Shown here one piece after another: positions 2,972 through 52,114 of a stretch of DNA of 64,000 bases. This stretch comes from an uncultured Bacilli bacterium (lineage in GTDB: Bacteria; Bacillota_I; Bacilli_A; RF39; UBA660). The position numbers and the translations under genes are program-made. The notes under the pieces were generated by a model, which made no database searches, had not been told where the DNA came from, and saw only the letters and a list, made by a program, of their open reading frames with translations. The stretch covers positions 340,896-404,895 of the forward strand of contig CAKOOM010000001.1 in assembly GCA_934098395.1 (NCBI GenBank), in the 5' to 3' direction. Numbering within the stretch: the first letter of the stretch is position 1; each line of letters opens with the position of its first letter.

Positions 2972-2982
2972 TGAATTAAAAA

Positions 2983-3435: not shown

Positions 3436-3445
3436 GAGTTAAAAT

Positions 3446-4454: not shown

Positions 4455-4463
4455 GAGTATGAT

Positions 4464-4625: not shown

Positions 4626-4633
4626 GTGAAAAT

Positions 4634-9875: not shown

Positions 9876-11370
9876 AGAAATAAAAATATCAATATCGAAA
9901 AAAGTATTTAATGATGTATATATACCTTATTTAGATAATATAAGCAGATATTTGATATTTTATGGTGGCGCTGGTAGTGGAAAGTCTTTCTTTGTTGTTG
10001 AAAGATATATATATAAAATACTTAATTCAAAAATGATGAACCTATTGACAGTTCGTGCTACTGGTAAGAGCAACAGAGATAGTACATTTGCTTTGTTTAA
10101 GCAAGTTATTAATAAATGGCACTTAGGTATGCACTTCAAAATAAATGAAAGTGATCTAAGAATAAAGTGTTTACTTAATGGCAATGAAATAATATTTAGT
10201 GGACTAGATGATGTTGAAAAGTTAAAATCAGTAACTTTTAGCAAAGGAGAACTTACTGATATATGGATAGAAGAAGCTTCTGAAATACTAGAAAGTGATT
10301 TTAATCAATTAGATGTCAGATTAAGAGGTAAAGGAACTAAAAAACAAATAGTTATATCTTTTAATCCAATTGATATTAATCATTGGTTAAAAAAGAAGTT
10401 CTTTGATGTACCAAGAGATAATTTAACTATAGTACATACAACATATAAGGATAATAAGTTCTTAGATGAAGATTATAAGAAGTTACTAGAAAGTTATAAG
10501 TATACTGATGAGTATTATTATAATGTGTACTGCTTAGGTCAATGGGGTGTTCTAGGAAAGACTGTATTTGATGCGAGAGCAGTAAGCAGAAGATTGCAAG
10601 AAATAACTAGACCAATCAAGACTGGTTATTTTGAATATAAATATGATGATACAATGCCTATTGGAAAGAAGATTACTGATGTAAAATGGGTAAACGACGA
10701 AAATGGTTATATAGAACTATATGAATTGCCTAACCTATACAAATATTGTGTAGGTGGTGATACTGCTGGTGATGGCTCTGATTGGTTTACCGGACACGTT
10801 CTTAATGCTAAAACAGGTAAACAAGTTGCAAGGTTAAGACATCAGATGGATGAGGATTTATATGTAAGGCAAATGTATTGTTTAGGCTGGTATTATGCTA
10901 ATAAGAACTTAAAAACTGGTGTAGTAACACCTGCTCTTATGTGTATTGAAAGTAATTTTAGTAGTTTTCCTAATAAAGAATTAGTACGATTAGGTTATCC
11001 TAATATGTTCGTAAGGGAGAAAGAAGATAGATATACAGGTGTAATGGACAAGTCTTATGGATTCAAAACCACTTCATTAACAAGACCTGTTATAATAGCA
11101 GAACTAGTTAAAATAGTTCGTGAAAATGTTGAATTAATAAATGATAAATTAACACTTGAAGAAATGCTAACTTTTGTCAGAAATGAAAAGGGAAGACCTG
11201 AGGCACAGCAAGGAGCACATGATGATTTGGTTATGGGGCTTGCTATAGCCTATTATTCAAGGACACAAGTAGTATTTGATGTTGAACCGATAAAAGTAAG
11301 TCAAGTATTTAACTTCAAGTCAGAAGAGCCACTAGAGGCTGATTATGGAGAGGAGATAGTGATCATATAA
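9868..11370 (+). CDS. terL: terminase large subunit (PBSX / Terminase_6-type)
   Basis: Walker A YGGAGSGKS; 500 aa; conserved C-terminal nuclease Asp residues. Confidence 0.9.
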   Translation: MTKEIKISISKKVFNDVYIPYLDNISRYLIFYGGAGSGKSFFVVERYIYKILNSKMMNLLTVRATGKSNRDSTFALFKQVINKWHLGMHFKINESDLRIKCLLNGNEIIFSGLDDVEKLKSVTFSKGELTDIWIEEASEILESDFNQLDVRLRGKGTKKQIVISFNPIDINHWLKKKFFDVPRDNLTIVHTTYKDNKFLDEDYKKLLESYKYTDEYYYNVYCLGQWGVLGKTVFDARAVSRRLQEITRPIKTGYFEYKYDDTMPIGKKITDVKWVNDENGYIELYELPNLYKYCVGGDTAGDGSDWFTGHVLNAKTGKQVARLRHQMDEDLYVRQMYCLGWYYANKNLKTGVVTPALMCIESNFSSFPNKELVRLGYPNMFVREKEDRYTGVMDKSYGFKTTSLTRPVIIAELVKIVRENVELINDKLTLEEMLTFVRNEKGRPEAQQGAHDDLVMGLAIAYYSRTQVVFDVEPIKVSQVFNFKSEEPLEADYGEEIVII

Positions 11371-11806: not shown

Positions 11807-13516
11807 ATGATGGATTTAAACGAAGTAAAAGAAACTGATATATGGGAGCTATATGAAAGAGGTAGAAATTATAATCGACTAAAAGGCCTATATTCAGATA
11901 CTGATAAAAATTATAGAATGTATAATGGTAATCAATGGGCTGGATTAAAGATCAGCGGAATAGAACCCATTCAATTAAATATAATAAAGCCAATAATTAA
12001 GTATAAAGTCGGAGTAATCAACAATAATATGTATTTACCTGTGTTTAGTGCTGAAAACTTTGAAAATAAAGAGTTTAAAGATGTAGCAAATAAAACCTGT
12101 GAACTTCTTAATAAACTAGCTGCTAAAGTATGGGAAAAAGACAATATGGACTACAAAACAAGAGCAATAAGCAAACATTCTGCTATTAATGATGAGTGCC
12201 CAATTTATGTTGACTATGATGAGAAGGCAAATATGCCACAAAATGAGATATTATCAAAGAACGATGTATATTATGGCAATGAGAACGATTCAGATATACA
12301 GAATCAGCCATATATTTTAATTAAGCATAGAAAACCAGTTATTAATACTATTGAAATGGCTAGATTATCAGGAGTGTCAGAGGACAAACTTAGGTATATA
12401 GTTGGTGATAATGATACTTTTGAAGAAGCTGGAGAAGACTCTAGAGAAGAAAAAGATGATATGGTAACTATTATTACTAAACTATATAAAGAAAATGGTA
12501 CAGTCCATTTTAGTCAAGCAACAAGATATTGTGATATAAAAGAAGACAAAGACACAGGGCTTACACTTTATCCACTAGAGCACATGCTTTGGGAAGAAAA
12601 AGAAGGATATGCTCGAGGAGAAGGTGAAGTCAGATATTTAATACCTAACCAGTTAGAAATTAATAAGACTATAATGAGAAGATTAATATCTGCAAAAACT
12701 ACCGCTTATCCACAAAAAATTGTTGATATATCTAAAATACAAAATCCTAATGCAATAGACAAAATTGGTGGCACTATTAAAGTTAATGGTATAAATGTAG
12801 ATGATGTTAAGAAGGCAATTGGAGTTCTTCAGCCAGCGCAAATGAGTGCAGATGTTGAAAAGGTAATGAATGAATTAATATCTACTACTAGAGAATTAGC
12901 TGGTGCTGGAGATATTGCTACTGGTGATGTTAATCCGGAAAGTGCGAGTGGTAAGGCAATATTGGCAGTACAGCAAGCATCACAGATGCCAGTAACTGAA
13001 CAAACATTGTCATTAAAGACCACTTTAGAGGGATTAGCAAGAATTTGGTTAGATATGTGGAAGACATATGCTACCGATGGCTTAGTAATAGACTATGAAG
13101 AATCCAATCCTGCTACTGGTGAAGTAAGTTCTAGACCAGTAAAAGTACCTTATAGTGTATTACAAGAATTACAAGCAAATGTAAAGATAGATATTACACC
13201 AAAGAGCCCTTATGATAAATATGCTCAAGAATTATCACTTGAGAATATGTTAAAGGCAGGATACTTTACTGCTGAAAGATTAGCAGAACTAGAAGTATAT
13301 GTAAGTCTATTAGATGATGACAGTTCAATGCCTAAATCTAAGTTAGAAGAAGCAATAAAGAAAATGAAAGAATCTCAGCAAAGAATAGCAGATGTTCAGA
13401 CAAAGGCTCAAGAATTGCAAATGAAAGCTAATAAATTTATCGCTAATCAACAAGATATAACTGGCATAGGACAATATGGAAATCAATTAATTAATCAAGC
13501 AATGACTACACAATAG
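11807..13516 (+). CDS. portal protein
   Basis: AGGAGGTGAC RBS; 569 aa, directly downstream of terL. Confidence 0.8.
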   Translation: MMDLNEVKETDIWELYERGRNYNRLKGLYSDTDKNYRMYNGNQWAGLKISGIEPIQLNIIKPIIKYKVGVINNNMYLPVFSAENFENKEFKDVANKTCELLNKLAAKVWEKDNMDYKTRAISKHSAINDECPIYVDYDEKANMPQNEILSKNDVYYGNENDSDIQNQPYILIKHRKPVINTIEMARLSGVSEDKLRYIVGDNDTFEEAGEDSREEKDDMVTIITKLYKENGTVHFSQATRYCDIKEDKDTGLTLYPLEHMLWEEKEGYARGEGEVRYLIPNQLEINKTIMRRLISAKTTAYPQKIVDISKIQNPNAIDKIGGTIKVNGINVDDVKKAIGVLQPAQMSADVEKVMNELISTTRELAGAGDIATGDVNPESASGKAILAVQQASQMPVTEQTLSLKTTLEGLARIWLDMWKTYATDGLVIDYEESNPATGEVSSRPVKVPYSVLQELQANVKIDITPKSPYDKYAQELSLENMLKAGYFTAERLAELEVYVSLLDDDSSMPKSKLEEAIKKMKESQQRIADVQTKAQELQMKANKFIANQQDITGIGQYGNQLINQAMTTQ

Positions 13517-19242: not shown

Positions 19243-22200
19243 ATGGGACATTTGTTTATAGCTAATTCAAACGGAAGTATATCAAAGCAAAAAATAGAAA
19301 AGAAAACAAAAATTATAAAAAACGCTGATGGAACATTAGATTTAAAATACTCTGGAATGCAAAGAATAAAAAATAGTATCAAATCCACAGGTAATTTAGT
19401 TACTAAAGGTGCTATAAAGGAAGCTGAAAGTCAATTAGACTGGATGAATAAAGCTAACTCAAAAGTTATGAGCGGTGCATATAATTTACTTGGAAGAAAA
19501 GATTTATCTCAAAGACAAACAGAAAATAGTAATGACTTTATAAAAAAAGATCTTACTCAAAAGTTATGGAATAAAACAGGATTACAAAATTCTCTAGAAA
19601 ATCAAGCAATAAATGGTTCAATAATAAAGGAAAATAATATTGGTGGTCAAATAGCATATGGCTTAGGACAACAGGGTGTAAGAATTGCTGAAGGAGCATT
19701 ATTGAGTGGCGGAGCAAATATTGGAAAAATAGATGACTTAGATAATTTAAGTAAATTTAAAAAAATTGGAGTTCAATTAGCGATAGATGCTCCTAGTAAT
19801 GTTGCTATGTATGCAAGTTCTTATGGTAGTGGATATGAGCAAGCTTTACAAGAAGGTGCTACTACTAAACAAGCAGAAAAATATGCTAAAGGAAGTGCGG
19901 CTGTAGAATTTGCTACAGAAATGATGACCGGCGGAATTCCTGGAACTAATGGTAAAGGATTTTTAGATTATGGTGCTGAGAAAGTAATAGATAAAATATC
20001 TAAAAAGGCAAGTTCAAAAGTAGCCAATATAGCTCTTAAATATGGATACCATATTGTTGGTGAAGGATTCGAAGAAGCAATGTCTGAAATTCTTAATCCA
20101 TATTTAAAAAATGCAACATATAGTTCTAACGAAAAAATAGATTGGAATCAAGTATGGAATGCTGCTGTTGTAGGCGGTGTTATTGGCGGAATATTGGAAG
20201 CACCAGGAACTGTTAGTGAATTAAAGTATAACAAAATAAACAGAGATGAAAAATCACAAATTCAAGAAAATAATACAAACACTACAAATAATATAAATCA
20301 AAATATTAATGATAAATCACATAATATCAATGTTCGTGGTGAGAATTTAGAACAAATACAAAGTGAAATACAACAATTAGAAGTTTTAGAAAAAAACAAC
20401 AATATAACTAAACAACAAGAACAATATTTAAATGAATTAAAAAAACAGTTAAATGACATTCAAAATCAAAATACTGATACAGATTTTTCTTTACCAACAA
20501 GAGAAAGTTTACCTACAGTTCAAGATATAGTTCAGCAAGAAAAAACAAATCAAAGTAATATTAATTTGCCAGTATATAATCAGCAAAGTAATGTTAACAA
20601 TTCTGATAAGGCTATTTTGCCTACTGTGAACGATTTTAATAGTTCTAATGCAAATATGCCTGCTAGTGATATAAAGGTTGACATGACTAAAATAAAGCCT
20701 GAAATATTAAATGATATTAAAGGTTTTAAATTAGGAGATCCTAATATTGAAGGATACAAAGGCAGTTATATAAAAACAATGTTAAATGAAGTTGGTATAA
20801 AAGTGCCTACTGCTATGAATTATGTAAGTGAAGTAAGGCCAGATATGAGTTTTACTACAACTAAAGATTTAACTAGACAACAATATGCTTCAATTGGAAA
20901 TGCTCTTCAAAAATTAAGAAGTGTAGATGTGACTAGTGTTAATAATGCTAATTATAGTATTCCAATAGGCAATTATCAATATGTTAAAAGTTCTAATGCA
21001 AATATAAATGAATTAAGAAGAACCGCCAGCATGTATTTAAATAATACTGCTAGATCGAACAACACTATTAGGCTACTAGAAAATATAATAAAAGATAGGA
21101 ATTATATAATAAGATTCAATCCTAATATAACTAATGAACAAGGTGTACCTGTTAACGGATTAATTACAAAAGAAAATGGTAAAACTATAATTGAATTAAA
21201 TCCTAATGCTGATAATTATGTTGAGTTTTTGGTTGTTCATGAAATAACTCATGACATAGCAACAAAAGAAATGAAGGAATTAATACTTGATTATGCTAAA
21301 CAAGATCCTGAGTTTGAAAAATCATTAGAATCATTAAAGGAAAGGTATAAAACTAATGATGTATCAGATGAAGTAGTGGCAGATGTATGTGGTGAATTGT
21401 TTGGCAATAGAGAATTCATTCAATCAGTTGTTGAAAAGAAACCAAATATATTTAAGAAAATACTAAATAATATTAGAAAATTAGCAGAAAAAATTAAGGG
21501 TACTGGTGCTAATGAGTATGTAAGTTTTGTTGAGAAGTTAAAAACTATGTGGGAAGATACCTATTATAGTAATAGAAGTAATCTTAATGAAACCAAATAT
21601 ATGATGACTAGTATTAAAGGAATGAAAAATGGTATCAAAGTTAATAATAAATATCAGGACATTAAAAATAGATATGATTTTGCATTAAAATTAGAAAATA
21701 CGGGCAATTATACAAACGAAGATATCAGAAAAAAGACAGGATGGTTTAAGGATAATAAAGGAAATTGGAAATTTGAAATATCCGATACAAATACATATAT
21801 CATTAAAAATCCTATAAAAAATACAAATTATGATTTATCTGATATTTTTGAGGCTAAAACATTATATGAAATGTATCCTAATTTGAAAAAAGTTTCTGTA
21901 AACTTTGGCGAAATAAAGGGAAATGCTTCTTACAATTCGAAAACAAAAACAATCAAAGTATCAAACAAATTAATTAATAATAATGACAGTTTAAGAGGCA
22001 CATTACTTCATGAAATACAACACTATATTCAAAGCGAAGAAAATTTGCCAACCGGAACAACGATTTTATTTGGAAATGAACAATATGCAAATAATCTTGG
22101 TGAAATAGAAGCTGCCGATACCAAAAATAGGAGAAATTTAACTGTTGCAGAGAGAAAAAAATCTATTCCAGAAAGTGCTAAATTAAATCCTACTCATCCA

Positions 22201-25200
22201 AATCGTGATGCAATTTTGAATCATAAAAGGAATACTATTGAAAAAATTGCAGAAAAATTATATAATTTACTTGGTGATAAGGCAAATGAAGTTTTTGAAG
22301 AAAACGATATTGAAACCACTAAAGAAAATCTTTCGAAAAATAGTAAGAATGATTCCAGTGGATTGGGGAACAGACGAAAATATGATGTAGAAGAACTAGA
22401 TAATAGTTCTTTTCTTTTGAAAAATAATGAAGGTAATGATATTGATATCACTAATTTAAAAGAGAACGATTCGATGTTGAGAATGCACTGTAAAAGAGTT
22501 TATGATAAAAACACGGTAAAAGCATATAGAGGTGTGAGCGAAAATACAGGATCAAATGGTGCATTTTATGGATTGGGATTATATACAACGTTGGATAAAA
22601 ATTATGCAAAAAAATATGGGGAAGTATTTGAAGTAGATAATGATTTATTGCCAAATAATCCTTTAATGTTTAAGACACAAAATGATTTTCAAATTTGGGA
22701 ACAACAATTAGCACAAGAATTAAATATAAGAAAAAATAAATTATATTCGAATAATTATGGCGTGGAACAATATATAAAAAGACTTGGTTATGATGGTTTA
22801 ATGATTGGCAGTGGTAAAGATACAGATTTAATTTCTTTTAAAGATGTATCAAAAAAATATTCTCAAAGTGCTAAAGAGTGGAATGAGTATCTTAAAGAAA
22901 ACTTTCCATCAGCTGGAACTAAAACTAAAATGTCTGACATTAAATTACCTGTTAGAGACGATATAGGAAGTAGCTCTAATAAAAACAGAGTTTTAAATCC
23001 AAACGAAATATCAAAATCAACTAAAAAAAATACTAAAAATGAATCCGAAAAATTGGCAGAAATATTAAGAGAAAAACCTACTACTATTGAAGAAAAAGAT
23101 AATTGGTTAAGAAAACTTGCTACTATTAAGTTTATTGATAAAGGATACTATGTTGATAAACTGGCAAGAAAAGTTAAAAATAAAGAGTTAAGTTCTAAGT
23201 ACGATTATTCACTTTTATCTAATGGAATTGCTAATCAAATAATAGGAAATGGTAGATTCAATGATAAAGGCAATAAAATAGGTAAAGGATTATATGAGAT
23301 ATTTGAGCCTATCGAGAATAGTGGCTTGTTAGATGATTTTAGTAAATATATGTATCATAAACACAATATTGATAGAATGAGTTTACAAAATAGATTTAAT
23401 GAAGCAAATAAAGCTGTATTTGGGGATAGTATGACTTCTGATATGTCAGAAAAAGTAGTTAATGAATATGAAACTAAATATCCTGAATTTGAATCTTGGG
23501 CTGATGATATTTACGAATATAATAATGCTAATTTAGAAATGCTTGTTAAATATGGAGTATTATCAAAAGATAGTATGGAATATTACAATAAAAAATATCC
23601 ACATTATGTACCTACCATTAGAGAACAAACTAAAACAAAAACTCAAATGGATTTCTTATTAGGTAAAAAAGCAAGTGTTAACAATCCTGTAAAAAAAGCT
23701 AAAGGTGGAAATGGTAACATAATTCCATTAAAAGATGCAATGGCACTTAGAACTATGCAAACTGTTAACTCTGCTTTAAGAAATAATTTTGGACTTGAGT
23801 TGTTAAATAGTATTGAAACCGAACAAATAAGAAATCAGGAAAATATTGATAATATTGTTGAAGAAATTAATAGTGATGATTTATTAATTAAAAGTAGTGA
23901 GACTAGTCCTGCGACTTTAACTGTTTTTGATAAAGGTGAAAAAGTAACTTTTGAAATATCAGATGAAATATATGAGGCATTGAAACCTAGTAACATTAAA
24001 ACATTTAAGTTTTTAAATAAATTAAATAATATTAGAAGGGGATTGCTTACTGAATATAATCCGACATTTATGATAACTAATCCTTTAAAAGATATTCAAG
24101 ATGGTAGTATTAACAGTAAACATCCTAAATTATTTATTAAAAATTTACCAGAAGCAATTATGCAAATAAAAAATAATGGACAATATAAACAACTATATAT
24201 TGCAAATGGTGGTTCATATGAAACATATTTCAATTATAATACTGGAACTAACATAGTACCTAGCAAATTAGACAAAATAACTCCATTAAAGAAGATTAGT
24301 GAAATAAATGAGGTTATAGAAATGGCACCTAGGCTTGCTGAGTTTATTTCTTCCATTGAGGCAGGAGATAGTATAGAAACTGCTATGTATAATGCTTCCG
24401 AAATAACTACTAACTTTAAAAGAGGAGGAGATATAACTAAAACTCTTGATAGAAATGGTGTTACATTCTTAAATGCAGGAGTACAAGGTGCTGTAAAACA
24501 GGTAAGAAATGTTCAAGAGGCAAGAGTTGAAAGTATTAAAGGAATTACTAAATTGGCAGTTAGATGGACTATTGCTGGACTTACCCCAGCACTTCTTATG
24601 GGAATGCTTTGGGGTGATGATGACGAATATGAGGAATTATCTGATTATATTAAAAATAATTATTATATAATTGGTAAATATGGCAATGGAGAATTTATTA
24701 AGATTCCAAAAGGTAGAGTAGTTAGTGTTCTGCAAAAATTCTTTCAAAATTTAATAGATGGAGCAAATGGAAAAAAAATAGATTTGGAAGGTCTTGCAGA
24801 TTTGATTGAAAATAATTTACTACCATCCGATCCAAATGAAAGTAGTTTAATTGCTCCTATAAAACAAGCAATTAATAACGAAACTTGGTATGGTGGTGAT
24901 TTAGTTCCTACGAGACTTCAAAACTTGCCTAATGCAGAACAATATGATGAAACAACTGATAGTATTAGTATTTGGTTGGGGAAAAAGTTAAATATAAGTC
25001 CATATAAAATAAATTATGTACTAGATCAATATGCTGGGGCTATAGGAGATTATACATTACCTTATTTAACTCAAGCAGCCGAAAGTGGCAGTGACAGTTT
25101 TACAGGAAAATTATTAGCACCAGTTAAAGATAAATTTACTGTAGATAGCAATCTTAAAAATCAAAACATTTCTGATTTTTATAGTTTAAGCGAAGAATTG

Positions 25201-25818
25201 ACTAAAAAATCTAATAGTTCTACTGCTACAGATGAGGATATACTAAAAAATAAGTATATTAATTCTGTTAAAAGTGAAATTAGTAAATTATATGCTAAAA
25301 AGAGAGAAATACAAAGTTCTTCCTTAAAAGATAGCGAAAAGTATAATCAAAGTAAGGAAATTCAAAAACAAATCAACGAATTATCAAAGAATGCCATAAA
25401 TGGTTATGATAAGGTTGAGTTATATGATAATTATGCTATTATCAGTGATAAAGAATATTATAAAAATAGTAATAATGAGTGGACTAAAGTAGATAAAACA
25501 AGTACAAAATATAAAACTGCAAAATTAATTACCAAATATAATGTTTACTTATCATGTGATAATGAAATAAAAAAGTTAAAAAAACAAAATAATAATTCTA
25601 ATAGTAGAAAGATAGCAATTATTAAATATATTAATTCCTTGGATTTAAGTGTTCCTCAAAAAGCTATGCTTATTAAAATGAATTACTCTTCTTATAATAG
25701 TTATAACAATCAAATAATTAATTATGTGAATAATCAAAATATTTCTTTAGATGAAAAAAAGGAAATACTTGAAGAACTGGGATTCAAGGTAAGAAATGGT
25801 AAGGTGTATTCGAAATGA
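19243..25818 (+). CDS. giant multidomain virion protein, 2191 aa (polyvalent or injected-protein-like, or atypical tape measure)
   Basis: HEITH at 21238-21252 (aa 666-670). HEIQH at 22009-22023 (aa 923-927); HEIQHYIQ resembles the DUF4157-type zincin signature. Gly-rich hydrophobic segment near aa 300. YRGVS...GLYTT segment near aa 1095-1180. Hydrophobic TIAGLTPALLMGMLWG segment near aa 1760. Confidence 0.6.
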   Translation: MGHLFIANSNGSISKQKIEKKTKIIKNADGTLDLKYSGMQRIKNSIKSTGNLVTKGAIKEAESQLDWMNKANSKVMSGAYNLLGRKDLSQRQTENSNDFIKKDLTQKLWNKTGLQNSLENQAINGSIIKENNIGGQIAYGLGQQGVRIAEGALLSGGANIGKIDDLDNLSKFKKIGVQLAIDAPSNVAMYASSYGSGYEQALQEGATTKQAEKYAKGSAAVEFATEMMTGGIPGTNGKGFLDYGAEKVIDKISKKASSKVANIALKYGYHIVGEGFEEAMSEILNPYLKNATYSSNEKIDWNQVWNAAVVGGVIGGILEAPGTVSELKYNKINRDEKSQIQENNTNTTNNINQNINDKSHNINVRGENLEQIQSEIQQLEVLEKNNNITKQQEQYLNELKKQLNDIQNQNTDTDFSLPTRESLPTVQDIVQQEKTNQSNINLPVYNQQSNVNNSDKAILPTVNDFNSSNANMPASDIKVDMTKIKPEILNDIKGFKLGDPNIEGYKGSYIKTMLNEVGIKVPTAMNYVSEVRPDMSFTTTKDLTRQQYASIGNALQKLRSVDVTSVNNANYSIPIGNYQYVKSSNANINELRRTASMYLNNTARSNNTIRLLENIIKDRNYIIRFNPNITNEQGVPVNGLITKENGKTIIELNPNADNYVEFLVVHEITHDIATKEMKELILDYAKQDPEFEKSLESLKERYKTNDVSDEVVADVCGELFGNREFIQSVVEKKPNIFKKILNNIRKLAEKIKGTGANEYVSFVEKLKTMWEDTYYSNRSNLNETKYMMTSIKGMKNGIKVNNKYQDIKNRYDFALKLENTGNYTNEDIRKKTGWFKDNKGNWKFEISDTNTYIIKNPIKNTNYDLSDIFEAKTLYEMYPNLKKVSVNFGEIKGNASYNSKTKTIKVSNKLINNNDSLRGTLLHEIQHYIQSEENLPTGTTILFGNEQYANNLGEIEAADTKNRRNLTVAERKKSIPESAKLNPTHPNRDAILNHKRNTIEKIAEKLYNLLGDKANEVFEENDIETTKENLSKNSKNDSSGLGNRRKYDVEELDNSSFLLKNNEGNDIDITNLKENDSMLRMHCKRVYDKNTVKAYRGVSENTGSNGAFYGLGLYTTLDKNYAKKYGEVFEVDNDLLPNNPLMFKTQNDFQIWEQQLAQELNIRKNKLYSNNYGVEQYIKRLGYDGLMIGSGKDTDLISFKDVSKKYSQSAKEWNEYLKENFPSAGTKTKMSDIKLPVRDDIGSSSNKNRVLNPNEISKSTKKNTKNESEKLAEILREKPTTIEEKDNWLRKLATIKFIDKGYYVDKLARKVKNKELSSKYDYSLLSNGIANQIIGNGRFNDKGNKIGKGLYEIFEPIENSGLLDDFSKYMYHKHNIDRMSLQNRFNEANKAVFGDSMTSDMSEKVVNEYETKYPEFESWADDIYEYNNANLEMLVKYGVLSKDSMEYYNKKYPHYVPTIREQTKTKTQMDFLLGKKASVNNPVKKAKGGNGNIIPLKDAMALRTMQTVNSALRNNFGLELLNSIETEQIRNQENIDNIVEEINSDDLLIKSSETSPATLTVFDKGEKVTFEISDEIYEALKPSNIKTFKFLNKLNNIRRGLLTEYNPTFMITNPLKDIQDGSINSKHPKLFIKNLPEAIMQIKNNGQYKQLYIANGGSYETYFNYNTGTNIVPSKLDKITPLKKISEINEVIEMAPRLAEFISSIEAGDSIETAMYNASEITTNFKRGGDITKTLDRNGVTFLNAGVQGAVKQVRNVQEARVESIKGITKLAVRWTIAGLTPALLMGMLWGDDDEYEELSDYIKNNYYIIGKYGNGEFIKIPKGRVVSVLQKFFQNLIDGANGKKIDLEGLADLIENNLLPSDPNESSLIAPIKQAINNETWYGGDLVPTRLQNLPNAEQYDETTDSISIWLGKKLNISPYKINYVLDQYAGAIGDYTLPYLTQAAESGSDSFTGKLLAPVKDKFTVDSNLKNQNISDFYSLSEELTKKSNSSTATDEDILKNKYINSVKSEISKLYAKKREIQSSSLKDSEKYNQSKEIQKQINELSKNAINGYDKVELYDNYAIISDKEYYKNSNNEWTKVDKTSTKYKTAKLITKYNVYLSCDNEIKKLKKQNNNSNSRKIAIIKYINSLDLSVPQKAMLIKMNYSSYNSYNNQIINYVNNQNISLDEKKEILEELGFKVRNGKVYSK

Positions 25819-27458
25819 TAAACAAAAGAGATATAAATAAGTTACGAACACCAGAAGATTTAGAAAGAAGATATAATCTTAAAGATATTTTCAAGTTAAA
25901 AGAAAACTATGAATTACAAAAAAATGGACTCAATAAAGTTGAAAATGAATTAAATAATTTTGTTATTGCAACTGGAAAAAACTTAAAAGAACTTCAAGAC
26001 CAGGTAGATGGAAACATTACTACCTGGTTTTATTCTGGAGTTCCTACAGATAATAATGAACCCGCTAAAAATTGGACTACTGATAATGAAAAAAACAATC
26101 ATTTAGGTGATCTTTATTATGATAAAGAAACTGGTTATGCTTATAGATATTCACTTGATAATGAAATTTATGATTGGATAAAAATTACTGATACTGATGT
26201 AACACAAGCTTTAGCAATAGCAAATACAGCTAAGGACACTGCTGATAGTAAAAGAAGAGTGTTTATTGTTCAACCATCACCACCATATGATTGTGGGGAT
26301 TTATGGCTTAAGGATGAAGAATTATATAGATGTCAAACTACTAAAACAAAAGATGAAATATTTGAAGAAAATGATTGGATAATAGCTACTAAGTATACTG
26401 ATGATACAAAAGCAAATCAAGTTGGGGAAAATCTAACAATATTAAGCGGTACTGTTACCGAAATAAGAAAAGATGTAGACAAATTAGATACTACTATGAC
26501 TAATACTACTAAACTAGTTGATGAACAAGGCAAAACTATTGGGACACTTGAAACAAAACAAAGTCAAACTGAGCAAACAGTGGAGGAAATATCAAATTCT
26601 GTTTCATCTGTTGGTACAAGGGTTACAACAATAGAAAATTCAGTACCAAAATATCAAACTGAACTAGATATATACAACATAACAATACCTGTTGATAGTG
26701 AACTGAAACCTCTAGAAAACAAAGACTATTTAGTTAGTTATAGCACTAAATTTGAAGGTGCAGAAGTAGAATCAACAGTTAGTTCTCAAAGTGAGAATAC
26801 TGGTATTACATTTGGATTACCAAATAATAAAATAACCTTATCAGTTCTAACAAGTGGTGCTATTACAAGTTTAAGTAATGAATTTGTAATAGATTTCGAA
26901 TATGAAAAAGATAATACTACTTATAATGATTCCAAAAAATTAGTAGTGGATTTATTAATAGTTGTGGATGATGAATTAAATGATTTGCAAAATCAAATCA
27001 ATGACACTAATAAAGATTTGAATAATAACTATACCAACAACACAGAACTAGACCAAAAACTAGAAAATCAAAAGCAAACTATAACAGAAGAATTTAGCAC
27101 AAGGATCACTCAAACTAAATCGGAATGGCAAGCAAGTGTAATTGAATACATAAATACTAATGGTGTAGAAAAATTTGTTAATACTTTGGTAACAATTGAT
27201 ATTGATGGTTTAAAACTATCTAAAAGCGATGAGGACATAGTTTCTTTGTTAAATAACAAAGGTCTGTATGTTAGTGATGGTAAATTGAGGGAAGATTTAG
27301 CTAATTTGCTTATGAAAGTAGATAGAACTGGTGCTTATTTAAAGTTACTTGAAATATTAGGAACTATAAAAGAACAAGGGATTATTCAAAAGGAAAAAAT
27401 AACTGATGATGAATTTGGAGAGTGTCAAGCATGGTATTGGATAGGGAGTGATAATTAA
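25815..27458 (+). CDS. tail fibre / coiled-coil fibre protein
   Basis: TTWFYSGVPT..N.PA..W N-terminal motif common in Firmicute phage fibre proteins; long central coiled coil. Confidence 0.5.
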   Translation: MINKRDINKLRTPEDLERRYNLKDIFKLKENYELQKNGLNKVENELNNFVIATGKNLKELQDQVDGNITTWFYSGVPTDNNEPAKNWTTDNEKNNHLGDLYYDKETGYAYRYSLDNEIYDWIKITDTDVTQALAIANTAKDTADSKRRVFIVQPSPPYDCGDLWLKDEELYRCQTTKTKDEIFEENDWIIATKYTDDTKANQVGENLTILSGTVTEIRKDVDKLDTTMTNTTKLVDEQGKTIGTLETKQSQTEQTVEEISNSVSSVGTRVTTIENSVPKYQTELDIYNITIPVDSELKPLENKDYLVSYSTKFEGAEVESTVSSQSENTGITFGLPNNKITLSVLTSGAITSLSNEFVIDFEYEKDNTTYNDSKKLVVDLLIVVDDELNDLQNQINDTNKDLNNNYTNNTELDQKLENQKQTITEEFSTRITQTKSEWQASVIEYINTNGVEKFVNTLVTIDIDGLKLSKSDEDIVSLLNNKGLYVSDGKLREDLANLLMKVDRTGAYLKLLEILGTIKEQGIIQKEKITDDEFGECQAWYWIGSDN

Positions 27459-29323
27459 TGGCAACATTTAATGGTAATATTGGTACTCCAAGCGGTGGTT
27501 TTAACTTAAAGGTTGATTATAATTTATCTGCAGTTAACGATAACATATCAACAAATGCAACTAAAATAATTTCAATCGTAGGTCAAGTAAAAAGAAATAA
27601 CAGTAGCTACTATCCTTTTAACGATACTAAAAGTGCTAGTATAAAAATAGAAAGACAAAAAGAAAATGGACAATGGGAAACAGTAAAAACATTGTCCGTA
27701 ACATCTGGAAGCTATTCACTTAATAATAATAACTATCAAACATGGGTAAGTGGAACAAATATATCGATATCACATAAGAATAATGGTACTCAAAAAATAA
27801 GAATTACATTTAGCGTAGATGGTAAACTAAGTAATTATTATCCAGTTGGTAGTATTAGTAAAGAAATAGAACTCCCTACAATTCCTAGAGCCAGTGATAT
27901 AGCAATAGCTAATACTGATTTGGGACAGAATATACCGATTACAATAGGTAAAAAGGTGGATTCATTTACAAGTACATTAACTTATACCATTGGAACACTG
28001 ACAGGGACAATAGTAGAAAAAACTAATTTGTCTAACTATCCATGGGTAATGGGTGAAGAACTTATTAGTCAGATAAAAAATGCTTATCCTAATACAGGAT
28101 CATATGCTAAAGGTGGAATTGAAACAAAGGTTACTTGTAAAACATATAACGGAACAACTTTGATAGGTTCCAAAGAGGCAACATTTAAATTGTATATAAC
28201 TGATAAACCTGTTATTAGTAGTGCTACAAGAACTGAATTAAACACTAAAATAAAAGCATTAACTACAAGTGTATTAAGGCACGCATCACAGAATAAATTT
28301 ACAATTACTGCAACTGCTCCAACTGGTGCTACAATTACTGGTTATAGGGTAAAAAATGGCACGCAAGATAGTGGACTATCAACAAGTAATGTAGTTAATC
28401 TAAACGATATTCAAACTTATTATACAGAAAGTAATGTATTAAAGACTAAGTTCATAGTTACTTGTGTAGATTCGAGAGGAAATGAATCAGAAGAATTTCT
28501 CGTGGTGTGCAATTTTATTAATTACATACAAGTATCAATCAATAAGACTGATGTAACTATAAAACGAAGCTCAGGAACTTCTACAGATTGCAAAATTTAT
28601 GCGACTGGTAATTTTTTCAATGGTAAGATTGGAACGACCAGTAATACAATTGCGTTTAAGGTAAGATCTAAACTAAAAACTGCTACTACATGGGGAAGTT
28701 GGACAACAGTATCAACAACATATACTGGCAATACATTTAAAGTTAATAATGTCACTATAGCAGGTACATTCAGTTATACTGAAAATTATGATTTCGAACT
28801 TATGGCAACTGACAAAATAGGTGAATACGATGATTATACTAAGGTATTTGTAAATAGTGTGCCGACAGAGAAACATCATAGTAAGGGTGCTTGGATAAGG
28901 GAACTATCTACTGATAAATTAGATGCTAAAGCAATAACTGATAATTTCTTGGGATTAATTATTGAAAAAGGCAACAATGAAAAAGGAAGTTGGATAAAAT
29001 TCGCTGATGGAACAATGATTTGTCGATTTACTCAAATAAAAAATATTGCTGTAGAAACAGCTTGGGGTTCTCTGTATGGTGGAAAAGGCACTTTACATGA
29101 TTATCCTCAAGAATTTGTTGGTATACCTGACACATGTATCACTTTATTATCAAATGAACAAACAGATGGTGGCAATTGGGCAGGCTGGCTTAATGCAAAT
29201 GGTGGTTCAGACGATATAAGACCTACAAACAAGAATTTCGGAACAGTCGGTATAGCACGACCTACCAAGGCATCGTATGCGTATTATAAGTTTAGTGTTA
29301 TAGCAATAGGTAGATGGAAGTGA
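27458..29323 (+). CDS. receptor-binding or distal tail protein (Thr/Ser/Gly-rich, beta-rich)
   Basis: Composition and position upstream of the lysis cassette; TGA stop. Confidence 0.5.
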   Translation: MATFNGNIGTPSGGFNLKVDYNLSAVNDNISTNATKIISIVGQVKRNNSSYYPFNDTKSASIKIERQKENGQWETVKTLSVTSGSYSLNNNNYQTWVSGTNISISHKNNGTQKIRITFSVDGKLSNYYPVGSISKEIELPTIPRASDIAIANTDLGQNIPITIGKKVDSFTSTLTYTIGTLTGTIVEKTNLSNYPWVMGEELISQIKNAYPNTGSYAKGGIETKVTCKTYNGTTLIGSKEATFKLYITDKPVISSATRTELNTKIKALTTSVLRHASQNKFTITATAPTGATITGYRVKNGTQDSGLSTSNVVNLNDIQTYYTESNVLKTKFIVTCVDSRGNESEEFLVVCNFINYIQVSINKTDVTIKRSSGTSTDCKIYATGNFFNGKIGTTSNTIAFKVRSKLKTATTWGSWTTVSTTYTGNTFKVNNVTIAGTFSYTENYDFELMATDKIGEYDDYTKVFVNSVPTEKHHSKGAWIRELSTDKLDAKAITDNFLGLIIEKGNNEKGSWIKFADGTMICRFTQIKNIAVETAWGSLYGGKGTLHDYPQEFVGIPDTCITLLSNEQTDGGNWAGWLNANGGSDDIRPTNKNFGTVGIARPTKASYAYYKFSVIAIGRWK

Positions 29324-29660: not shown

Positions 29661-29854
29661 TGAAAATCAAAGAAAGAATAGCAAAATTAATTGATTTAAA
29701 GAGTATTCTATCACTAATTGTTGTATTATCTTATACAATTATGTGTTTCAAAGGAATAGTAGAGGCAGATTATAAAGATTTGGTAATAATGATAATGACA
29801 TTTTATTTCGCAAGTAAAGTAGAAAAGAAAGGAAATGATAGTAATGAAATGTAG
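29660..29854 (+). CDS. holin (64 aa, two transmembrane segments)
   Basis: Two hydrophobic segments; directly precedes the endolysin. Confidence 0.55.
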   Translation: MKIKERIAKLIDLKSILSLIVVLSYTIMCFKGIVEADYKDLVIMIMTFYFASKVEKKGNDSNEM

Positions 29855-30569
29855 AGTATTAGAAAGTGGAATTTGTGAAGTAACACAAGAATATAAAGGA
29901 GCACAGCATGGCGGGATTGATGTTGTAAATAAAGGTTATACATTAGGAAATATTGTAGCACATACTGAAGGGCAAGTTGTTGAAGTAAGAAATAATTGTA
30001 ATTCTTTTGAGCCTAACGGAAGTTATGGTAATTATGTTAAAATTAAACATGATAATGGATACTATACTTTATACGCACACATGGCATATAACACTGTAAA
30101 AGTATCTAAAGGTCAAAGAGTATCTAAAGGACAATTACTTGGATACATGGGTGCTACAGGTACTGCTTATGGCGGTCATTTGCACTTTGAAGTAAGAAAT
30201 GAAAACAATATAAGAATTAATCCTACCGAGTATTTGGAAAAAGATTTATTTACAAAAAAAGTTAATAAATCAGTAGATGAATTGGCTAAAGAAGTTATAG
30301 CTGGTAAATACGGTAATGGTGAAGAAAGAAAAAAAACTTTAGGAGATAGATATAGTGAGGTACAAGCAAGAGTTAATGAAATCCTAACACCAGCACAAAA
30401 AACAAGTGTGAATATATTAGATTTAGTAAAAAAGACTATTAGAGGAGACTTCGGTAATGGTGATGCAAGAAAGAATGCTCTAGGTTCTAACTATGCTGAG
30501 GTTCAAAGACAAGTGAATCTTAATTTCCAAAATGGAACTACAAGCTGGGATAATATAAGATTATATTAA
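29844..30569 (+). CDS. endolysin: M23 peptidase domain plus two CW_7 (Cpl-7-like) cell-wall-binding repeats
   Basis: M23 motifs HGGIDV ... HLHFEV; two GNG..R+..LG..Y.EVQ..VN repeats. Confidence 0.8.
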   Translation: MKCRVLESGICEVTQEYKGAQHGGIDVVNKGYTLGNIVAHTEGQVVEVRNNCNSFEPNGSYGNYVKIKHDNGYYTLYAHMAYNTVKVSKGQRVSKGQLLGYMGATGTAYGGHLHFEVRNENNIRINPTEYLEKDLFTKKVNKSVDELAKEVIAGKYGNGEERKKTLGDRYSEVQARVNEILTPAQKTSVNILDLVKKTIRGDFGNGDARKNALGSNYAEVQRQVNLNFQNGTTSWDNIRLY

Positions 30570-48797: not shown

Positions 48798-49973
48798 ATG
48801 AAAATAAAAATTGAAGCAATGGATCATAATGGATCTGGAATAGGGAGAATAGATGATAAGGTTGTTTTTGTTCCTAAGAGTATTGTAGGGGATTATGTAG
48901 ATACAGAAGTAATTAGAGATAATAAAAAATATATGAATGGAATAATTAAAGAGATAATTACTCCGAGTAGTAAGAGACAGGAAGCAATATGCCCATACTA
49001 TGAGAAATGTGGAGGTTGTCAGATAAGTAATCTGTCTTATTTGGAACAGTTGGAATTTAAGAAAAATAAGGTAAAAAATATATTTTCTAGGTATTTAAAT
49101 AAATCAATAGATCCAGTAATAATAGATAGTGATAAGAGATATCAGTATAGAAATAAGATAACATTTCATAATGAGGGAGAACTAGGTCTTATATCAATAG
49201 AAAATAGATGTGTACCAATAGATAGATGTTTATTAGTTAGTGATAAGGTAAATCAAATATATGAACTTATTAAACGAGAAGATACGAGTAGATTAGATAA
49301 ACTGATTATTAAAGAATGTGATAATGGTATTATTCTTAGTATATATGGAATTATAAATTATAATAAGTTTAGAGATTTATGTATATCAATATATGTTGAT
49401 GATAAAAGAGTTTATTTTAAGGAAGATGGGTATATTTATATTAAAGATATTAAATATTTAATATCTAATAAATCTTTTTTTCAAATAAATACGAGTAATA
49501 TAAGTAAGTTATATGATTTAATTATTCAATATGGTAAGTTTAATGGTACTGAGAGAGTAATAGATTTGTACTGTGGTGTTGGAAGTATAAGTTTATATGT
49601 TTCTAGATATGTTGATAGTGTTCTTGGAATAGAGATAGTAGATGATGCGATTAAGGATGCAAGAAAGAATGCTAATAATAATATGATATCTAATGTATCT
49701 TTTATTTGTTCTGATGTATCTTTAGTAATAGATGATAATATTAATTGTGATGTATTAATTGTAGATCCTCCAAGAGTAGGAATTGATAAACATACGATAG
49801 ATGTTATTAATAAATCAGGTATAAAGAAAATAATATATGTATCTTGTGATCCGATGACTTTAGTTCGTGATATTAAAAGATTAGATAATTATGAATTTGT
49901 AGATATAACATTAGTAGATATGTTTCCACAAACACATCATGTGGAGTGTGTAAGTGTTTTAAAACTTAGATAG
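48798..49973 (+). CDS. rlmD: 23S rRNA (uracil-5)-methyltransferase RlmD/RumA family
   Basis: N-terminal TRAM domain, Cys cluster CPYYEKCGGCQ, SAM motif DLYCGVGSISL, VDPPRVG. Confidence 0.75.
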   Translation: MKIKIEAMDHNGSGIGRIDDKVVFVPKSIVGDYVDTEVIRDNKKYMNGIIKEIITPSSKRQEAICPYYEKCGGCQISNLSYLEQLEFKKNKVKNIFSRYLNKSIDPVIIDSDKRYQYRNKITFHNEGELGLISIENRCVPIDRCLLVSDKVNQIYELIKREDTSRLDKLIIKECDNGIILSIYGIINYNKFRDLCISIYVDDKRVYFKEDGYIYIKDIKYLISNKSFFQINTSNISKLYDLIIQYGKFNGTERVIDLYCGVGSISLYVSRYVDSVLGIEIVDDAIKDARKNANNNMISNVSFICSDVSLVIDDNINCDVLIVDPPRVGIDKHTIDVINKSGIKKIIYVSCDPMTLVRDIKRLDNYEFVDITLVDMFPQTHHVECVSVLKLR

Positions 49974-49988
49974 GTATTGATATTATAA
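49944..49988. repeat. direct repeat copy 1 (45 bp; the 3' end of rlmD including its stop codon)
   Basis: Identical 45-mer at 50990-51034; 56 bp with 2 mismatches when extended upstream. Confidence 0.85.
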
Positions 49989-50020
49989 GTAACTATTTAG
50001 TAAATGTTAAAATATAGAAA

Positions 50021-50944
50021 TTGTTAATGAAATTGAATAGTATGAAAACAACAGGGAGGTTTTGGTTAGTGAATGAATTATTGATAAATGAAAGTTTAAA
50101 AATTGAAAAAATGATTTTCGAAGTGAGGGGTAAACAGGTTATTTTATCTTCTGATGTTGCAAAGTTATATAAAACAGAAACGAGAATTATAAATCAAACG
50201 ATTAAAAGAAATATTATGAGATTTCCAGAATCATTTTGTTTTTAATTAACTATGGAAGAAGTTGTTGATTTGAGATCACAAGTTGTGACCTCAAGTTTAA
50301 AAACTAAACTTGCGCATGGTGGTTTAAGATATTTACCATATGTATTAACTGAACAAGGAATAATGATGCTATCTGGTCTTCTTAAAAGTGATATTGCAGT
50401 CAAAGTTAATGTTCAAATTATTGATGCATTTGTTGCTATGAGACAATATATTTCAAATACATTAGTAAATCAAAATTTTATAAATAGTTTGGTATATAAG
50501 CATGATGAAGAGATAAAGTTGCTAAAAGATTCTTTTGATAAGTTACAAGAAAATAAAAAATCAAACGCAATATTTTTTGATGGTCAAATTTATGATGCTT
50601 ATTCATTATTATTAGATATTTTAAATAGTGCAAAAAAGGAAATTATTATTATTGATAATTATGCAGGTAAAGAATTATTAGATATTTTAAAACAAATAGA
50701 TATTAACGTAATAATTTATTCTGCAAATATAAATGAAATATTAATTAAAAAATATATAAATCAGTATAGAAATGTTGAATTTTTTCATAATGATAAATTT
50801 CATGATAGATTTATTATCATAGATAAAAAGATTATATATCATTGTGGTAGTAGTTTTAAGGATTTAGGAAAGAAATGTTTTGCTATTAGTAAAATGGAAA
50901 GTGATACAATTTTAAATGATGTACTAAATAAAATAAATATCTAG
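50021..50944 (+). pseudogene. ORF6N-domain (phage antirepressor-related) gene interrupted by an in-frame TAA at 50243-50245
   Basis: ORFs 50021-50245 and 50252-50944 are in the same frame. Together they read ...IFEVRGKQVILSSDVAKLY..IINQTIKRNIMRFPESFCF*LTMEEVVDLRSQVVTSS...RYLPYVLTEQGIMMLSGLLKSDIAVKVNVQIIDAFV. This matches the ORF6N consensus as recalled, with the stop falling where Q (CAA) is expected. Confidence 0.6.
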
Positions 50945-50989
50945 TTTTTTTGAAGGGTATATATTCATAATAAATATTTTAATCACGTT

Positions 50990-51034
50990 GAGTGTGTAAG
51001 TGTTTTAAAACTTAGATAGGTATTGATATTATAA
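50990..51034. repeat. direct repeat copy 2
   Basis: Identical to 49944-49988; not part of any ORF. Confidence 0.85.
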
Positions 51035-51063
51035 AAGGTATGATTTAGAAAGGAGATGATAAT

Positions 51064-51702
51064 ATGACAGTAATTTATTTAATTAGACATTCAGCACCTT
51101 TTGTTGAAATAGATAATTATGATGATTATAAAAACATCTTATGGAGTGAATATAATAAAAATATGATTTTATCATCACAAGGAGAAGCTAATGCAAAGAA
51201 GTTATGTAATGTTAAAGAATTAACGGATATTAAGGAAATATATGCAAGTAATTCATCTCGAGCAATTGAAACAGCAAAATATCTTGCAGAAAGTAATAAT
51301 TTAAAAATAAAATTAGATGAGAGAATTAATGAAAGAGAATTTGGAGTTGAATATATAAAAGATTTACCAGATAATTTTAATAAAATATCATTTGATGATA
51401 AAACATTTAAAATGAAAGATGGAGAATCGTTAAATGATGTGGATAATAGATTTAAATCTTTTATTGATGAAATATTAAAAAAAGATGTTGATAAAATTGC
51501 AATAGTAATGCATGGAATTATTTTATTATCATATTTAAAAACTATTTGTGATTGTTTTGAATTTGATGGTAGGAAATTTAATATTAGTTATAATGATAAT
51601 ATAATTTTAAATGGGACTCCTAAAAATCCAAGTATTTATAAAATTGAATTTGATAGTAATAAAAATGTTAAAAATGTTAGTTATGTTGAATGTGATTTGT
51701 AA
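51064..51702 (+). CDS. histidine phosphatase family (phosphoglycerate-mutase-like) protein
   Basis: N-terminal LIRHS motif; His later in the sequence. Confidence 0.65.
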   Translation: MTVIYLIRHSAPFVEIDNYDDYKNILWSEYNKNMILSSQGEANAKKLCNVKELTDIKEIYASNSSRAIETAKYLAESNNLKIKLDERINEREFGVEYIKDLPDNFNKISFDDKTFKMKDGESLNDVDNRFKSFIDEILKKDVDKIAIVMHGIILLSYLKTICDCFEFDGRKFNISYNDNIILNGTPKNPSIYKIEFDSNKNVKNVSYVECDL

Positions 51703-51859
51703 TGACTGTTTTATGGAATATATAAAAAATAGAGATAAGTATTTGAATGAATATTTATAGTGAGATTAAATGCTATGATTAGCAGCATAAATGTATGGTT
51801 AAATTGCTTTATTAGATATTAAATATTTAGTATATTATTATCAAGAAGGAGATGATAAT

Positions 51860-52114
51860 ATGACGTTAGGTCAAAAATTAAAAGAAATAAGAAAAAGATT
51901 TGGCTTATCTCAAGAACAACTTGCGGAAATTATTAATGTTTCTAGACAAGCGATAACTAAATGGGAAAGTGATAATGGATTACCTGATGTTAGTAATTTA
52001 CAAGAATTGTCAAAAGTGTTTGGAGTAACAGTAGATTATTTATTAAATGGTGAAAATAAATTACCAGCCTTAGCTATGAGAAGAAATTTGTGTATGGGAA
52101 AAATAAATTTATAA
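51860..52114 (+). CDS. XRE-family helix-turn-helix transcriptional regulator
   Basis: LGQKLKEIRKRFGLSQEQLAEIINVSRQAITKWE. Confidence 0.7.
   Translation: MTLGQKLKEIRKRFGLSQEQLAEIINVSRQAITKWESDNGLPDVSNLQELSKVFGVTVDYLLNGENKLPALAMRRNLCMGKINL

Follow-up and report, generated by a model that had tools for sequence, protein, structure and literature searches.

Behind the rRNA methyltransferase gene rlmD (synonym rumA) of an uncultured Bacilli bacterium lies a one-gene unit of approximately 1.0 kb that is enclosed by two perfect 45-nt direct repeats. Here, we describe this unit, located in a 64-kb stretch of DNA (contig CAKOOM010000001.1, positions 340,896 to 404,895; hereafter 'the window', to which all unlabelled coordinates refer), and compare it with related loci, the contigs of which are designated by L numbers. 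In our judgement, the repeats are probably the right halves of the left and right attachment sites (attL and attR) of a cassette that lacks a recombinase gene and was inserted site-specifically at a GA dinucleotide close to the rlmD 3' end. The unit belongs to a cassette family of uncultured gut Bacilli of low GC content, the members of which lack recombinases and stand co-oriented, one after another, behind rlmD. The cargo of this family comprises PDC-S05 genes (in an ORF6N or a RhuM form), PDC-S13 genes, a major facilitator superfamily (MFS) transporter gene, and a 9-kb block of two-component-system and ATP-binding cassette (ABC) transporter genes.

The insertion site in the window and in strains of the same species

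The locus contains the following features, listed with the evidence for each:
48798–49973, plus strand: rlmD/rumA, 391 amino acids, with TRAM and U5-methyltransferase domains (open reading frame [ORF] list; Pfam tRNA_U5-meth_tr, 1.5e-30, and TRAM, 9e-9)
49917–49946, plus strand: putative left (B) half of the attachment site, GATATGTTTCCACAAACACATCATGTGGAG, codons DMFPQTHHVE (motif present once per host rlmD, with 0–6 mismatches)
49944–49988, plus strand: direct repeat copy 1, putative right half of attL (repeat search; alignment of 14 att sites)
49958–49986, plus strand: promoter-like site in copy 1, TTTAAA-17-TGaTATTAT, facing the ORF6N gene (consensus scan only)
49989–50989, plus strand: cassette body, 1001 nt, of which the portion from approximately 50034 to 50949 is common to other hosts
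50069–50944, plus strand: cargo gene with an ORF6N domain and a C-terminal phospholipase D (PLD)-like domain, a PADLOC PDC-S05 match, here a pseudogene (Pfam, PADLOC, Foldseek)
50962–50989, plus strand: right-end arm (P arm), consisting of TATTCATAAT at 50962–50971 and 18 nt up to a GA
50990–51034, plus strand: direct repeat copy 2, putative right half of attR, a non-coding copy of the rlmD tail (53-nt version from 50982)
51004–51032, plus strand: second copy of the promoter-like site, facing the histidine-phosphatase gene (consensus scan only)
51064–51702, plus strand: histidine-phosphatase gene, right chromosomal flank of the insertion (Pfam His_Phos_1, 2e-23)

The window contains the perfect 45-mer, GAGTGTGTAAGTGTTTTAAAACTTAGATAGGTATTGATATTATAA, at two positions only (49944–49988 and 50990–51034, both on the plus strand, without mismatch), the two named in a preliminary description prepared from the letters of the window. 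No third copy was found across the window at up to three mismatches, 100 dinucleotide-preserving shuffles gave an expectation of none, and Rfam returned no match at E ≤ 1. Other details of that description require correction. Copy 1 does not consist of the last ten codons of rlmD and its stop codon, but of the final nine codons (ECVSVLKLR), the TAG stop codon (49971–49973), and 15 non-coding nucleotides; and the ungapped extension of the repeat is not 56 bp with two mismatches, but 53 nt with two mismatches (49936–49988 versus 50982–51034, spacing 1046 nt), the pair having five mismatches if counted from 49933. A repeat search of the window found no inverted repeat linking the two ends of the cassette, and the GC content of the insert is unremarkable compared to its surroundings.

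Upstream of the repeat, the rlmD genes of all examined hosts share the conserved B-half motif. The crossover dinucleotide is probably the GA at 49944–49945, part of the GAG codon for the glutamate of HHVE. The rlmD gene itself is intact, since the DNA past the insertion point still codes for a complete tail, and copy 1 together with the B half rebuilds a complete attB-like site. Copy 2 is taken to be the original 3' end of the host's rlmD, displaced by the insertion.

That the left edge of the repeat is indeed an insertion point is documented by strains of the same species. Contigs from human-gut metagenomes (Hadza and others) that encode identical RlmD or histidine-phosphatase proteins (L001 and others) invariably show the order rlmD, ORF6N gene, histidine-phosphatase gene, with both repeats present (the two copies differing at three positions in L006) and with no change in the position of the histidine-phosphatase gene among the cassette-bearing contigs of the species. 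A search with the RlmD protein additionally yielded seven same-species variants (96–97% amino-acid identity), which are identical through ...DMFPQTHHVE and then have differing tails; after HHVE, six tails are found (CVSVLKLR, CVSVLKLK, CCVLMCLK, SCVLMCLK, SVILLQRKD, and NVILLQRKD). The DNA of L141–L147 matches the window across priA and rlmD (96.6–98.3% identity) and loses homology at 49946–49951, right after CATCATGTGGAG. At this point, L141, L142, and L144 have another multi-gene insert (DUF2797, HIT-like, and other genes; more than 5 kb in L144), and L146 and L147 have unrelated DNA past the breakpoint, with another rlmD-end-like motif. The site is therefore polymorphic within the species, and the breaks in strain homology, together with the differing tails, identify the left edge of the repeat as a recombination breakpoint that has been used repeatedly. 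The earlier proposal of an attachment site overlapping the rlmD 3' end is borne out by these strains. Separately, several short-read contigs (L003, L004, L140, and L143) terminate at or just past the rlmD stop codon, within the repeat or the variable junction, as is typical of assemblers at a repeat or at a polymorphism in the population.

Cargo, recurrence, and the conserved right end

Between the repeats, Pfam and the ORF list agree with the preliminary description that there is a sole gene, of the ORF6N type (GTG start at 50069, stop at 50944), and no integrase. The gene is split by an in-frame TAA at 50243–50245, so that the Pfam ORF6N match falls across both resulting ORFs. The same codon is CAA in L007 and L008, which encode an intact protein of 291 amino acids, and the CAA-to-TAA nonsense allele of the window is found also in L001, L002, L005, and L006. 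By sequence comparison, the cargo is a member of the PDC-S05 family of candidate anti-phage genes: the PADLOC model PDLC04869 matches over the full length (residues 7–290, E = 1.1e-92), and a PHROGs match is restricted to the N-terminal 'anti-repressor' part. Pfam has no match for the C-terminal domain, and a sequence search of the PDB gave nothing significant. A Foldseek search with an AlphaFold model (predicted local distance difference test score 70–89 in the C-terminal domain) matched NucT, Zucchini, and PLD2 (E = 2e-4 to 1e-3), as well as TrmBL2. In a protein alignment, the motif H-x-R-x4-D...G-S is invariant; in the cargo protein it reads H245-D-R247-x4-D252...G260-S-S, with arginine replacing the lysine of HxK(x)4D(x)6GSxN. 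Expressed in Escherichia coli, a RhuM-type PDC-S05 gene reduces plating of phages T7, T5, and T4 10- to 1000-fold (bioRxiv 10.1101/2024.09.26.614923). The member tested there is a RhuM-domain protein, whereas the cargo of the window is the ORF6N plus PLD-like form and a pseudogene; the RhuM form sits at the same hotspot in L010 and L155. The name PDC-S05 covers the cargo and not the mechanism of its insertion.

The intact ORF6N protein has more than 8000 homologs. Those that are at least approximately 80% identical are encoded directly 3' of rlmD (L089/L100, L093, L102, and L103/L105) or, in L148, inside an array that begins at rlmD; L129 and L133/L134 have only an N-terminal ORF6N fragment behind rlmD, and L101 and L104 include too little upstream sequence to be placed relative to it. 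Homologs of less than 70% identity are not adjacent to rlmD. Altogether, the gene follows rlmD or is part of an rlmD array in six host lineages, with DNA 82–90% identical, while the RlmD proteins compared among the hosts are only 33–46% identical (the complete rlmD of L154 standing in for the L148-type array because the copy in L148 is cut by the contig end). The genes upstream of rlmD likewise vary by host (priA, a CNNM gene, a pseudouridine synthase gene, or vanY). By blastn against L089, L093, L105, and L148, the cassette body is 84–90% identical from 50034 or 50057 to 50937 or 50949, and the ORF6N gene of the window strain and that of L089 are similar at the protein (89.3%) and nucleotide (89.7%) levels, which argues for recent horizontal spread and not for ancient linkage. 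No relatives were found when viral contigs were scanned with the ORF6N protein, and its matches among phage and plasmid proteins are all below 60% identity. Away from rlmD, L096 carries a 61% identical ORF6N gene (6001–6864), and a 70-nt copy of the 5' end of this gene lies 2.5 kb upstream (3417–3509); an Abi_2 gene and a gene for 208 amino acids lie between the two copies, i.e. this is another insertion bounded by a duplicated gene end.

The right ends of the cassettes are conserved independently of their cargo. In the window, L102, L105, and L148, the invariant TATTCATAAT is followed by 17–18 nt, a GA, and then a copy of the host's own rlmD tail; all non-first junctions read CTATTCATAAT plus 17–18 nt plus GA. 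The arm pattern TATTCATAAT-N(9-16)-GTNNAR.KTGT has 23 matches in 1.47 Mb of fetched DNA, all on the same strand and all at cassette junctions. The tail repeats are host-specific and differ in length (approximately 27 nt in L102, 45–53 nt in the window, approximately 55 nt in L154, and approximately 95 nt in L105; they are present in L148 too), and their left edges all fall at the same codon. Homology between the L102 and L105 cassettes begins at the end of the host-specific repeat and stops at the GA of attR. The same arm terminates the 9-kb block in L148, L154, and L156, which encodes a two-component system, a deacetylase, an ABC transporter, and a 162-amino-acid protein, and it terminates the MFS gene unit in L155, in which the right end of the RhuM gene that follows gave no arm motif in the scan. 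In L010, a RhuM gene and a PDC-S13-type gene (PDC-S05 at 2e-149 and PDC-S13 at 9e-112) are found between repeats that resemble the rlmD 3' end.

Several observations concern the ends themselves. In L010, a related metagenome-assembled genome, at least two units stand behind rlmD (1878–5500), parted by rlmD-3'-end-like repeats (GTAGACATGTTTCCAC...), and a similar motif is present in the same-species L146; a further family of att arms may thus exist at this site. An end module of approximately 110 nt, in which an inverted ATTATGA separates two TATTCATAAT-like motifs, is found at L102 4903–5012, L105 4903–5011, L148 9800–9906 and 10901–10980, and L155 1975–2075. The first half of this module resembles a degenerate att site, and the cassette of the window has only its last motif. 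The ATTATGA/TCATAAT inverted pair inside the module is conserved, and a phage DNA database yielded no match to the module. An integron-type attC hairpin was considered and rejected: single-stranded folds of four end modules and of both att sites of the window were no better than those of shuffled sequences (z = -1.4 to +0.1). Finally, the 1941-bp contig L104 begins inside a repeat (1–120) that, compared with the L105 host, has attR-type bases in its left part and attL-type bases in its right part. A circle or tandem junction that arose by crossover within the repeat may account for this pattern, or an assembly chimera over a 28-nt identical stretch.

Mode of insertion and competing explanations

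The preliminary description held that the rumA/rlmD 3' end is not a commonly reported integration hotspot, which is incorrect. In Streptococcus, Enterococcus, and Roseburia, serine-recombinase elements have as their conserved target the GA in the 11th rumA codon, counted from the 3' end; the recombinase gene, of 547–549 codons, occupies the element's right-hand end and is fused to the displaced rumA tail, and the left ends encode RumA-like replacement tails, diverse short versions of which occur in many genomes (PMC4120198). The gene is a common site for serine-integrase integrative and conjugative elements (ICEs), integrative and mobilizable elements (IMEs), and prophages (PMC7168690; PMC5357655), and a serine-recombinase prophage of Erysipelothrix adjoins rlmD (PMC12785378). 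A phi-m46.1-like junction of Streptococcus pyogenes (L159, JF501521.1) is 88% identical over 42 nt to the att region of the window. The same record (1660–1850 and 3190–3235) contains the rum tail and two further rum-tail-like sequences, which end in ..HHIECVALLVKA and ..HVECVVLLIKE, each followed by a stop codon, and these repeats separate short segments, i.e. the same stacking of att remnants is seen in a cultured pathogen.

We favour a scheme in which conservative site-specific recombination would have occurred at the GA of the glutamate codon in HHV-E, with nine residues left to the RlmD end, the position used by the ICEs, IMEs, and prophages with large serine recombinases (LSRs) in rumA/rlmD of streptococci, enterococci, and Roseburia. 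The cassette starts with an rlmD tail, carries one cargo gene, and ends in TATTCATAAT-N17-18-GA against the displaced native tail (copy 2). Owing to the rlmD-tail sequence at its start, RlmD stays intact and an attB-like site is rebuilt beside the gene; attL is again a complete attB-like site, which would permit the serial stacking seen in L148, L155, and L010. The recombinase would act in trans and most likely derive from a rumA-specific LSR element once integrated in tandem, following the logic of cis-mobilizable elements (CIMEs) and pseudo-staphylococcal cassette chromosome (pseudo-SCC) elements discussed below. The LSR of such a tandem element is the most parsimonious candidate for the mover.

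Several points weigh against this scheme. Neither the annotated parts of the window nor the 4–10-kb flanks of related loci nor any cassette contains a recombinase: Pfam finds only ORF6N between the repeats of the window, and nothing of the kind was found in the window at 29.8–43 kb or in its prophage part, in Pfam scans of selected ORFs of L102, L105, and L134, or in the gene tables of L144, L148, and L154–L158. At no locus was a recombinase found within 6–10 kb, and there is no IntI/attI platform; the genes upstream of rlmD are clpB, hsp20, a 174-amino-acid ORF, and priA. For the species, no empty site (rlmD-45-mer-AAGGTATG, i.e. CCACAAACACATCATGTG + 45-mer + AAGGTATGATTTAG) and no circle junction (TATTCATAAT...-45-mer-GTAACTATTT, i.e. 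TATTCATAATAAATATTTTAATCACGTT + 45-mer + GTAACTATTTAGTAAATG) was recovered, nor was a helper element, and all contigs with the rlmD tail of the window carry the cassette. When genome contigs were scanned with RlmD, the nearest species were only 57–62% identical, the species' own representative was not among the matches, and no clean empty site was seen; a contig of a sister species (L140, 88%) terminates at the rlmD stop codon. Since every window-tail contig has the cassette, and since recombinase, empty site, and circle junction were all absent from the searches, mobility at the present day is unproven. In addition, L089/L100 and L093 have the gene after rlmD and neither right arm nor repeats, and the data come mostly from metagenome assemblies. 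Finally, LSRs require a match of 2 bp only, and LSR chemistry alone does not explain a 45-nt identity that includes 15 non-coding nucleotides, nor repeats of 27–95 nt. This likeness of tails within a host could possibly be due to a recombinase that needs a right half-site of approximately 45 nt, to homogenization by homologous recombination, or to formation of the cassette in the host lineage. The chimeric repeat of L104 may hint at a crossover inside the repeat, with an assembly artefact as the alternative.

Two candidates for a mobility function were tried and discarded. Frame-shifted frames just 5' of the att arm in L148 (9.3–9.8 kb), which resembled an LSR C-terminus, gave nothing in Pfam and NCBIfam, and a homolog search returned only domainless proteins of 162–209 amino acids; the sequence belongs to the 162-amino-acid protein. 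A transposon or insertion sequence that generates a target-site duplication was rejected on account of repeats that vary from 27 to 95 nt by host and of the lack of a transposase and of terminal inverted repeats.

Among the rival explanations, the one that survives best, albeit as an unlikely one, is that a full ICE, IME, or prophage at rlmD, equipped with a recombinase of its own, lost all but a single gene and its two att sites through internal deletions. The rumA/rlmD site is known to host complete LSR elements, the cargo gene of the window is itself decaying, and L089 and L093 look like immobilized remnants, lacking the right arm and, in L089, having a RhuM-like gene fragment between rlmD and the ORF6N gene. 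The same one-gene unit with the same right arm would, however, have to result from independent decay in at least four unrelated hosts; there is no recombinase pseudogene and no phage or ICE debris between the repeats; and the only suspected LSR remnant is the one in L148 that was discarded above. Of the two possibilities named in the preliminary description, the CIME-like, integrase-less unit fits the data, whereas the decayed stump is unlikely in view of recurrence of the unit in six hosts and of the arm in four.

Integration of the Campbell type, i.e. a RecA-dependent single crossover between the chromosome and a circle bearing the gene and a host rlmD tail, within 45–95 nt of homology, is improbable. 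Such an event would account for repeats that are host-specific, variable in length (27–95 nt), and inclusive of non-coding sequence, and the L104 repeat, attR-type on the left and attL-type on the right, is what a crossover within the repeat predicts. The L104 pattern could equally be an assembly chimera over the 28-nt identical stretch, and a Campbell-type event leaves unexplained why every repeat has its left edge at the same GA of the glutamate codon, why the P arm stands at a fixed spacing, and how transfer took place between hosts that share only a short rlmD DNA motif.

Site-specific insertion by an enzyme supplied in trans is also to be set against the notion that the ORF6N plus PLD-like protein recognizes the rlmD end and catalyses its own insertion, a PLD-type phosphotransferase serving as recombinase or homing nuclease. 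No other protein is encoded in the unit, this one has a DNA-binding domain as well as a PLD-like nuclease fold with an invariant histidine, and members that share at least 80% identity form a subfamily tied strictly to rlmD. The same arm and repeats nevertheless occur in cassettes with different cargo (the 9-kb block of L154 and the MFS gene of L155), with no ORF6N gene called in 20 kb of L154; homologs below 70% identity are located elsewhere; the family scores as the defence candidate PDC-S05, of which a RhuM-type member protects against phages; and we know of no PLD-family recombinase. We consider this explanation very improbable. A chance or generic intergenic repeat, for which only the AT-rich composition of the region could be adduced, is refuted by the two sole copies, their absence from shuffles, and the lack of an Rfam match.

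Beyond the cassette, the right flank contains a perfect 19-nt direct repeat, AAGGAGATGATAATATGAC (51050–51068 and 51846–51864, 796 nt apart), which takes in, for the histidine-phosphatase gene and an XRE-family gene alike, the ribosome-binding site, the ATG, and the bases that come first in the gene. In L008 a longer gene reads through, of which the 84-amino-acid XRE/helix-turn-helix (HTH) gene (51860–52114) is a variant with an internal deletion. In a comparison of L006 (6630–6840) and L008 (6990–7480, a stretch that includes a run of N), the L006 copy has no N-terminal HTH part; the deletions of this gene thus differ by strain. The left half of the window (1–30600) is a prophage with genes for RecT (1489–2361), a large terminase (9868–11370), a P22-like portal (11807–13516), a 2191-amino-acid tail protein (19243–25818), a siphovirus DUF859 protein (27458–29323), and an M23+CW_7 lysin (29835–30569). 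Its integrase and att sites were not located within the window and may lie beyond the window start.

Relation to known elements

Most of what is known of the rumA/rlmD site comes from pathogens, namely from their large, resistance-carrying ICEs and their prophages. The present data suggest that rlmD also docks tiny recombinase-less cassettes in uncultured gut Bacilli, which would let single defence genes reach distant hosts without bringing mobility genes along. Insertion of such cassettes would explain the hypervariability of the RlmD C-terminus between strains, and the combination of TATTCATAAT-N17-18-GA with an rlmD-tail copy offers a signature for finding them in metagenomes. The ORF6N plus PLD-like version of PDC-S05 is flagged here as uncharacterized.

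With the LSR elements specific for rumA (the vanG element, ICE-r, phi-m46.1-type and phiEr670-type prophages, and IME_rumA), the unit of the window shares the gene, the GA in the glutamate codon of HHVE approximately 10 codons before the gene end, the in-frame RumA-like tail provided by the left end, and the downstream displacement of the native tail; tandem accretion occurs in those elements and in the rlmD arrays alike. The replacement tail is evident in the intact 391-amino-acid rlmD, the tail of which lies in copy 1, and in the other tails that start from the same point in other strains. The LSR elements differ in that they measure 16–71 kb and have conjugation or phage modules, whereas the unit of the window is 1 kb with one gene; in that their recombinase gene occupies the right end, where the unit has a non-coding conserved arm and no recombinase; and in a reported direct repeat of 2 bp versus the perfect 45 nt. 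A TGA 13 codons ahead of the GAG ends the frame that lies 5' of copy 2, so that no ORF runs into the rumA tail, and neither conjugation or phage modules nor the terminal imperfect inverted repeats of the LSR elements were found in the unit.

In Streptococcus thermophilus, CIMEs occupy the 3' end of fda, and in staphylococci, pseudo-SCC elements occupy that of rlmH/orfX; both consist of cargo enclosed by att repeats in which a housekeeping gene's 3' end is duplicated. They have no recombinase of their own and are thought to be moved by that of a related element after tandem integration. SCC elements use Ccr LSRs and also target an rRNA methyltransferase gene; CIMEs are viewed as deletion derivatives of ICEs. 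The unit of the window is likewise flanked by att sites at a site of integrase-bearing elements, with no recombinase inside. In contrast, the target gene and the recombinase are others, and a defined one-gene unit with its own conserved end recurs in distant hosts.

Tycheposon-type arrays of marine cyanobacteria involve tyrosine recombinases and tRNA gene targets. They resemble the rlmD arrays in their serial insertions, their cargo between partial copies of the target 3' end, and their variable islands, whereas no tyrosine recombinase was seen at the rlmD loci.

Sedentary chromosomal integrons are arrays of co-oriented, recombinase-less cassettes with related end sequences and often with defence cargo, and repeats from one host resemble each other more closely than they do those from other hosts. 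The rlmD cassettes likewise form co-oriented arrays of small units with related ends, within-host-similar repeats, and defence-type cargo. They differ from integrons in having no intI, attI, Pc, or significant single-strand hairpin at the end module, in an attachment point inside the last codons of a gene, and in the promoter-like site that the cassette of the window has of its own. As a tentative generalization, which we hold to be a real possibility though short of even chances, the 3' end of rlmD might function, in uncultured low-GC gut Bacilli, in an integron-like form of gene capture, in which a trans-acting recombinase would assemble cassettes with RumA-tail-mimicking starts and TATTCATAAT-N17-18-GA ends into a strain-variable island, mostly of defence genes, and would move them between hosts with RlmD proteins 33–46% identical; in a more radical version, the ORF6N plus PLD-like protein itself would take part in recombination. 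The hotspot as such was known from the ICEs, IMEs, and prophages discussed above; what is probably new is the recurrent recombinase-less cassette at this hotspot, which replaces the reading of the unit as a decayed stump.

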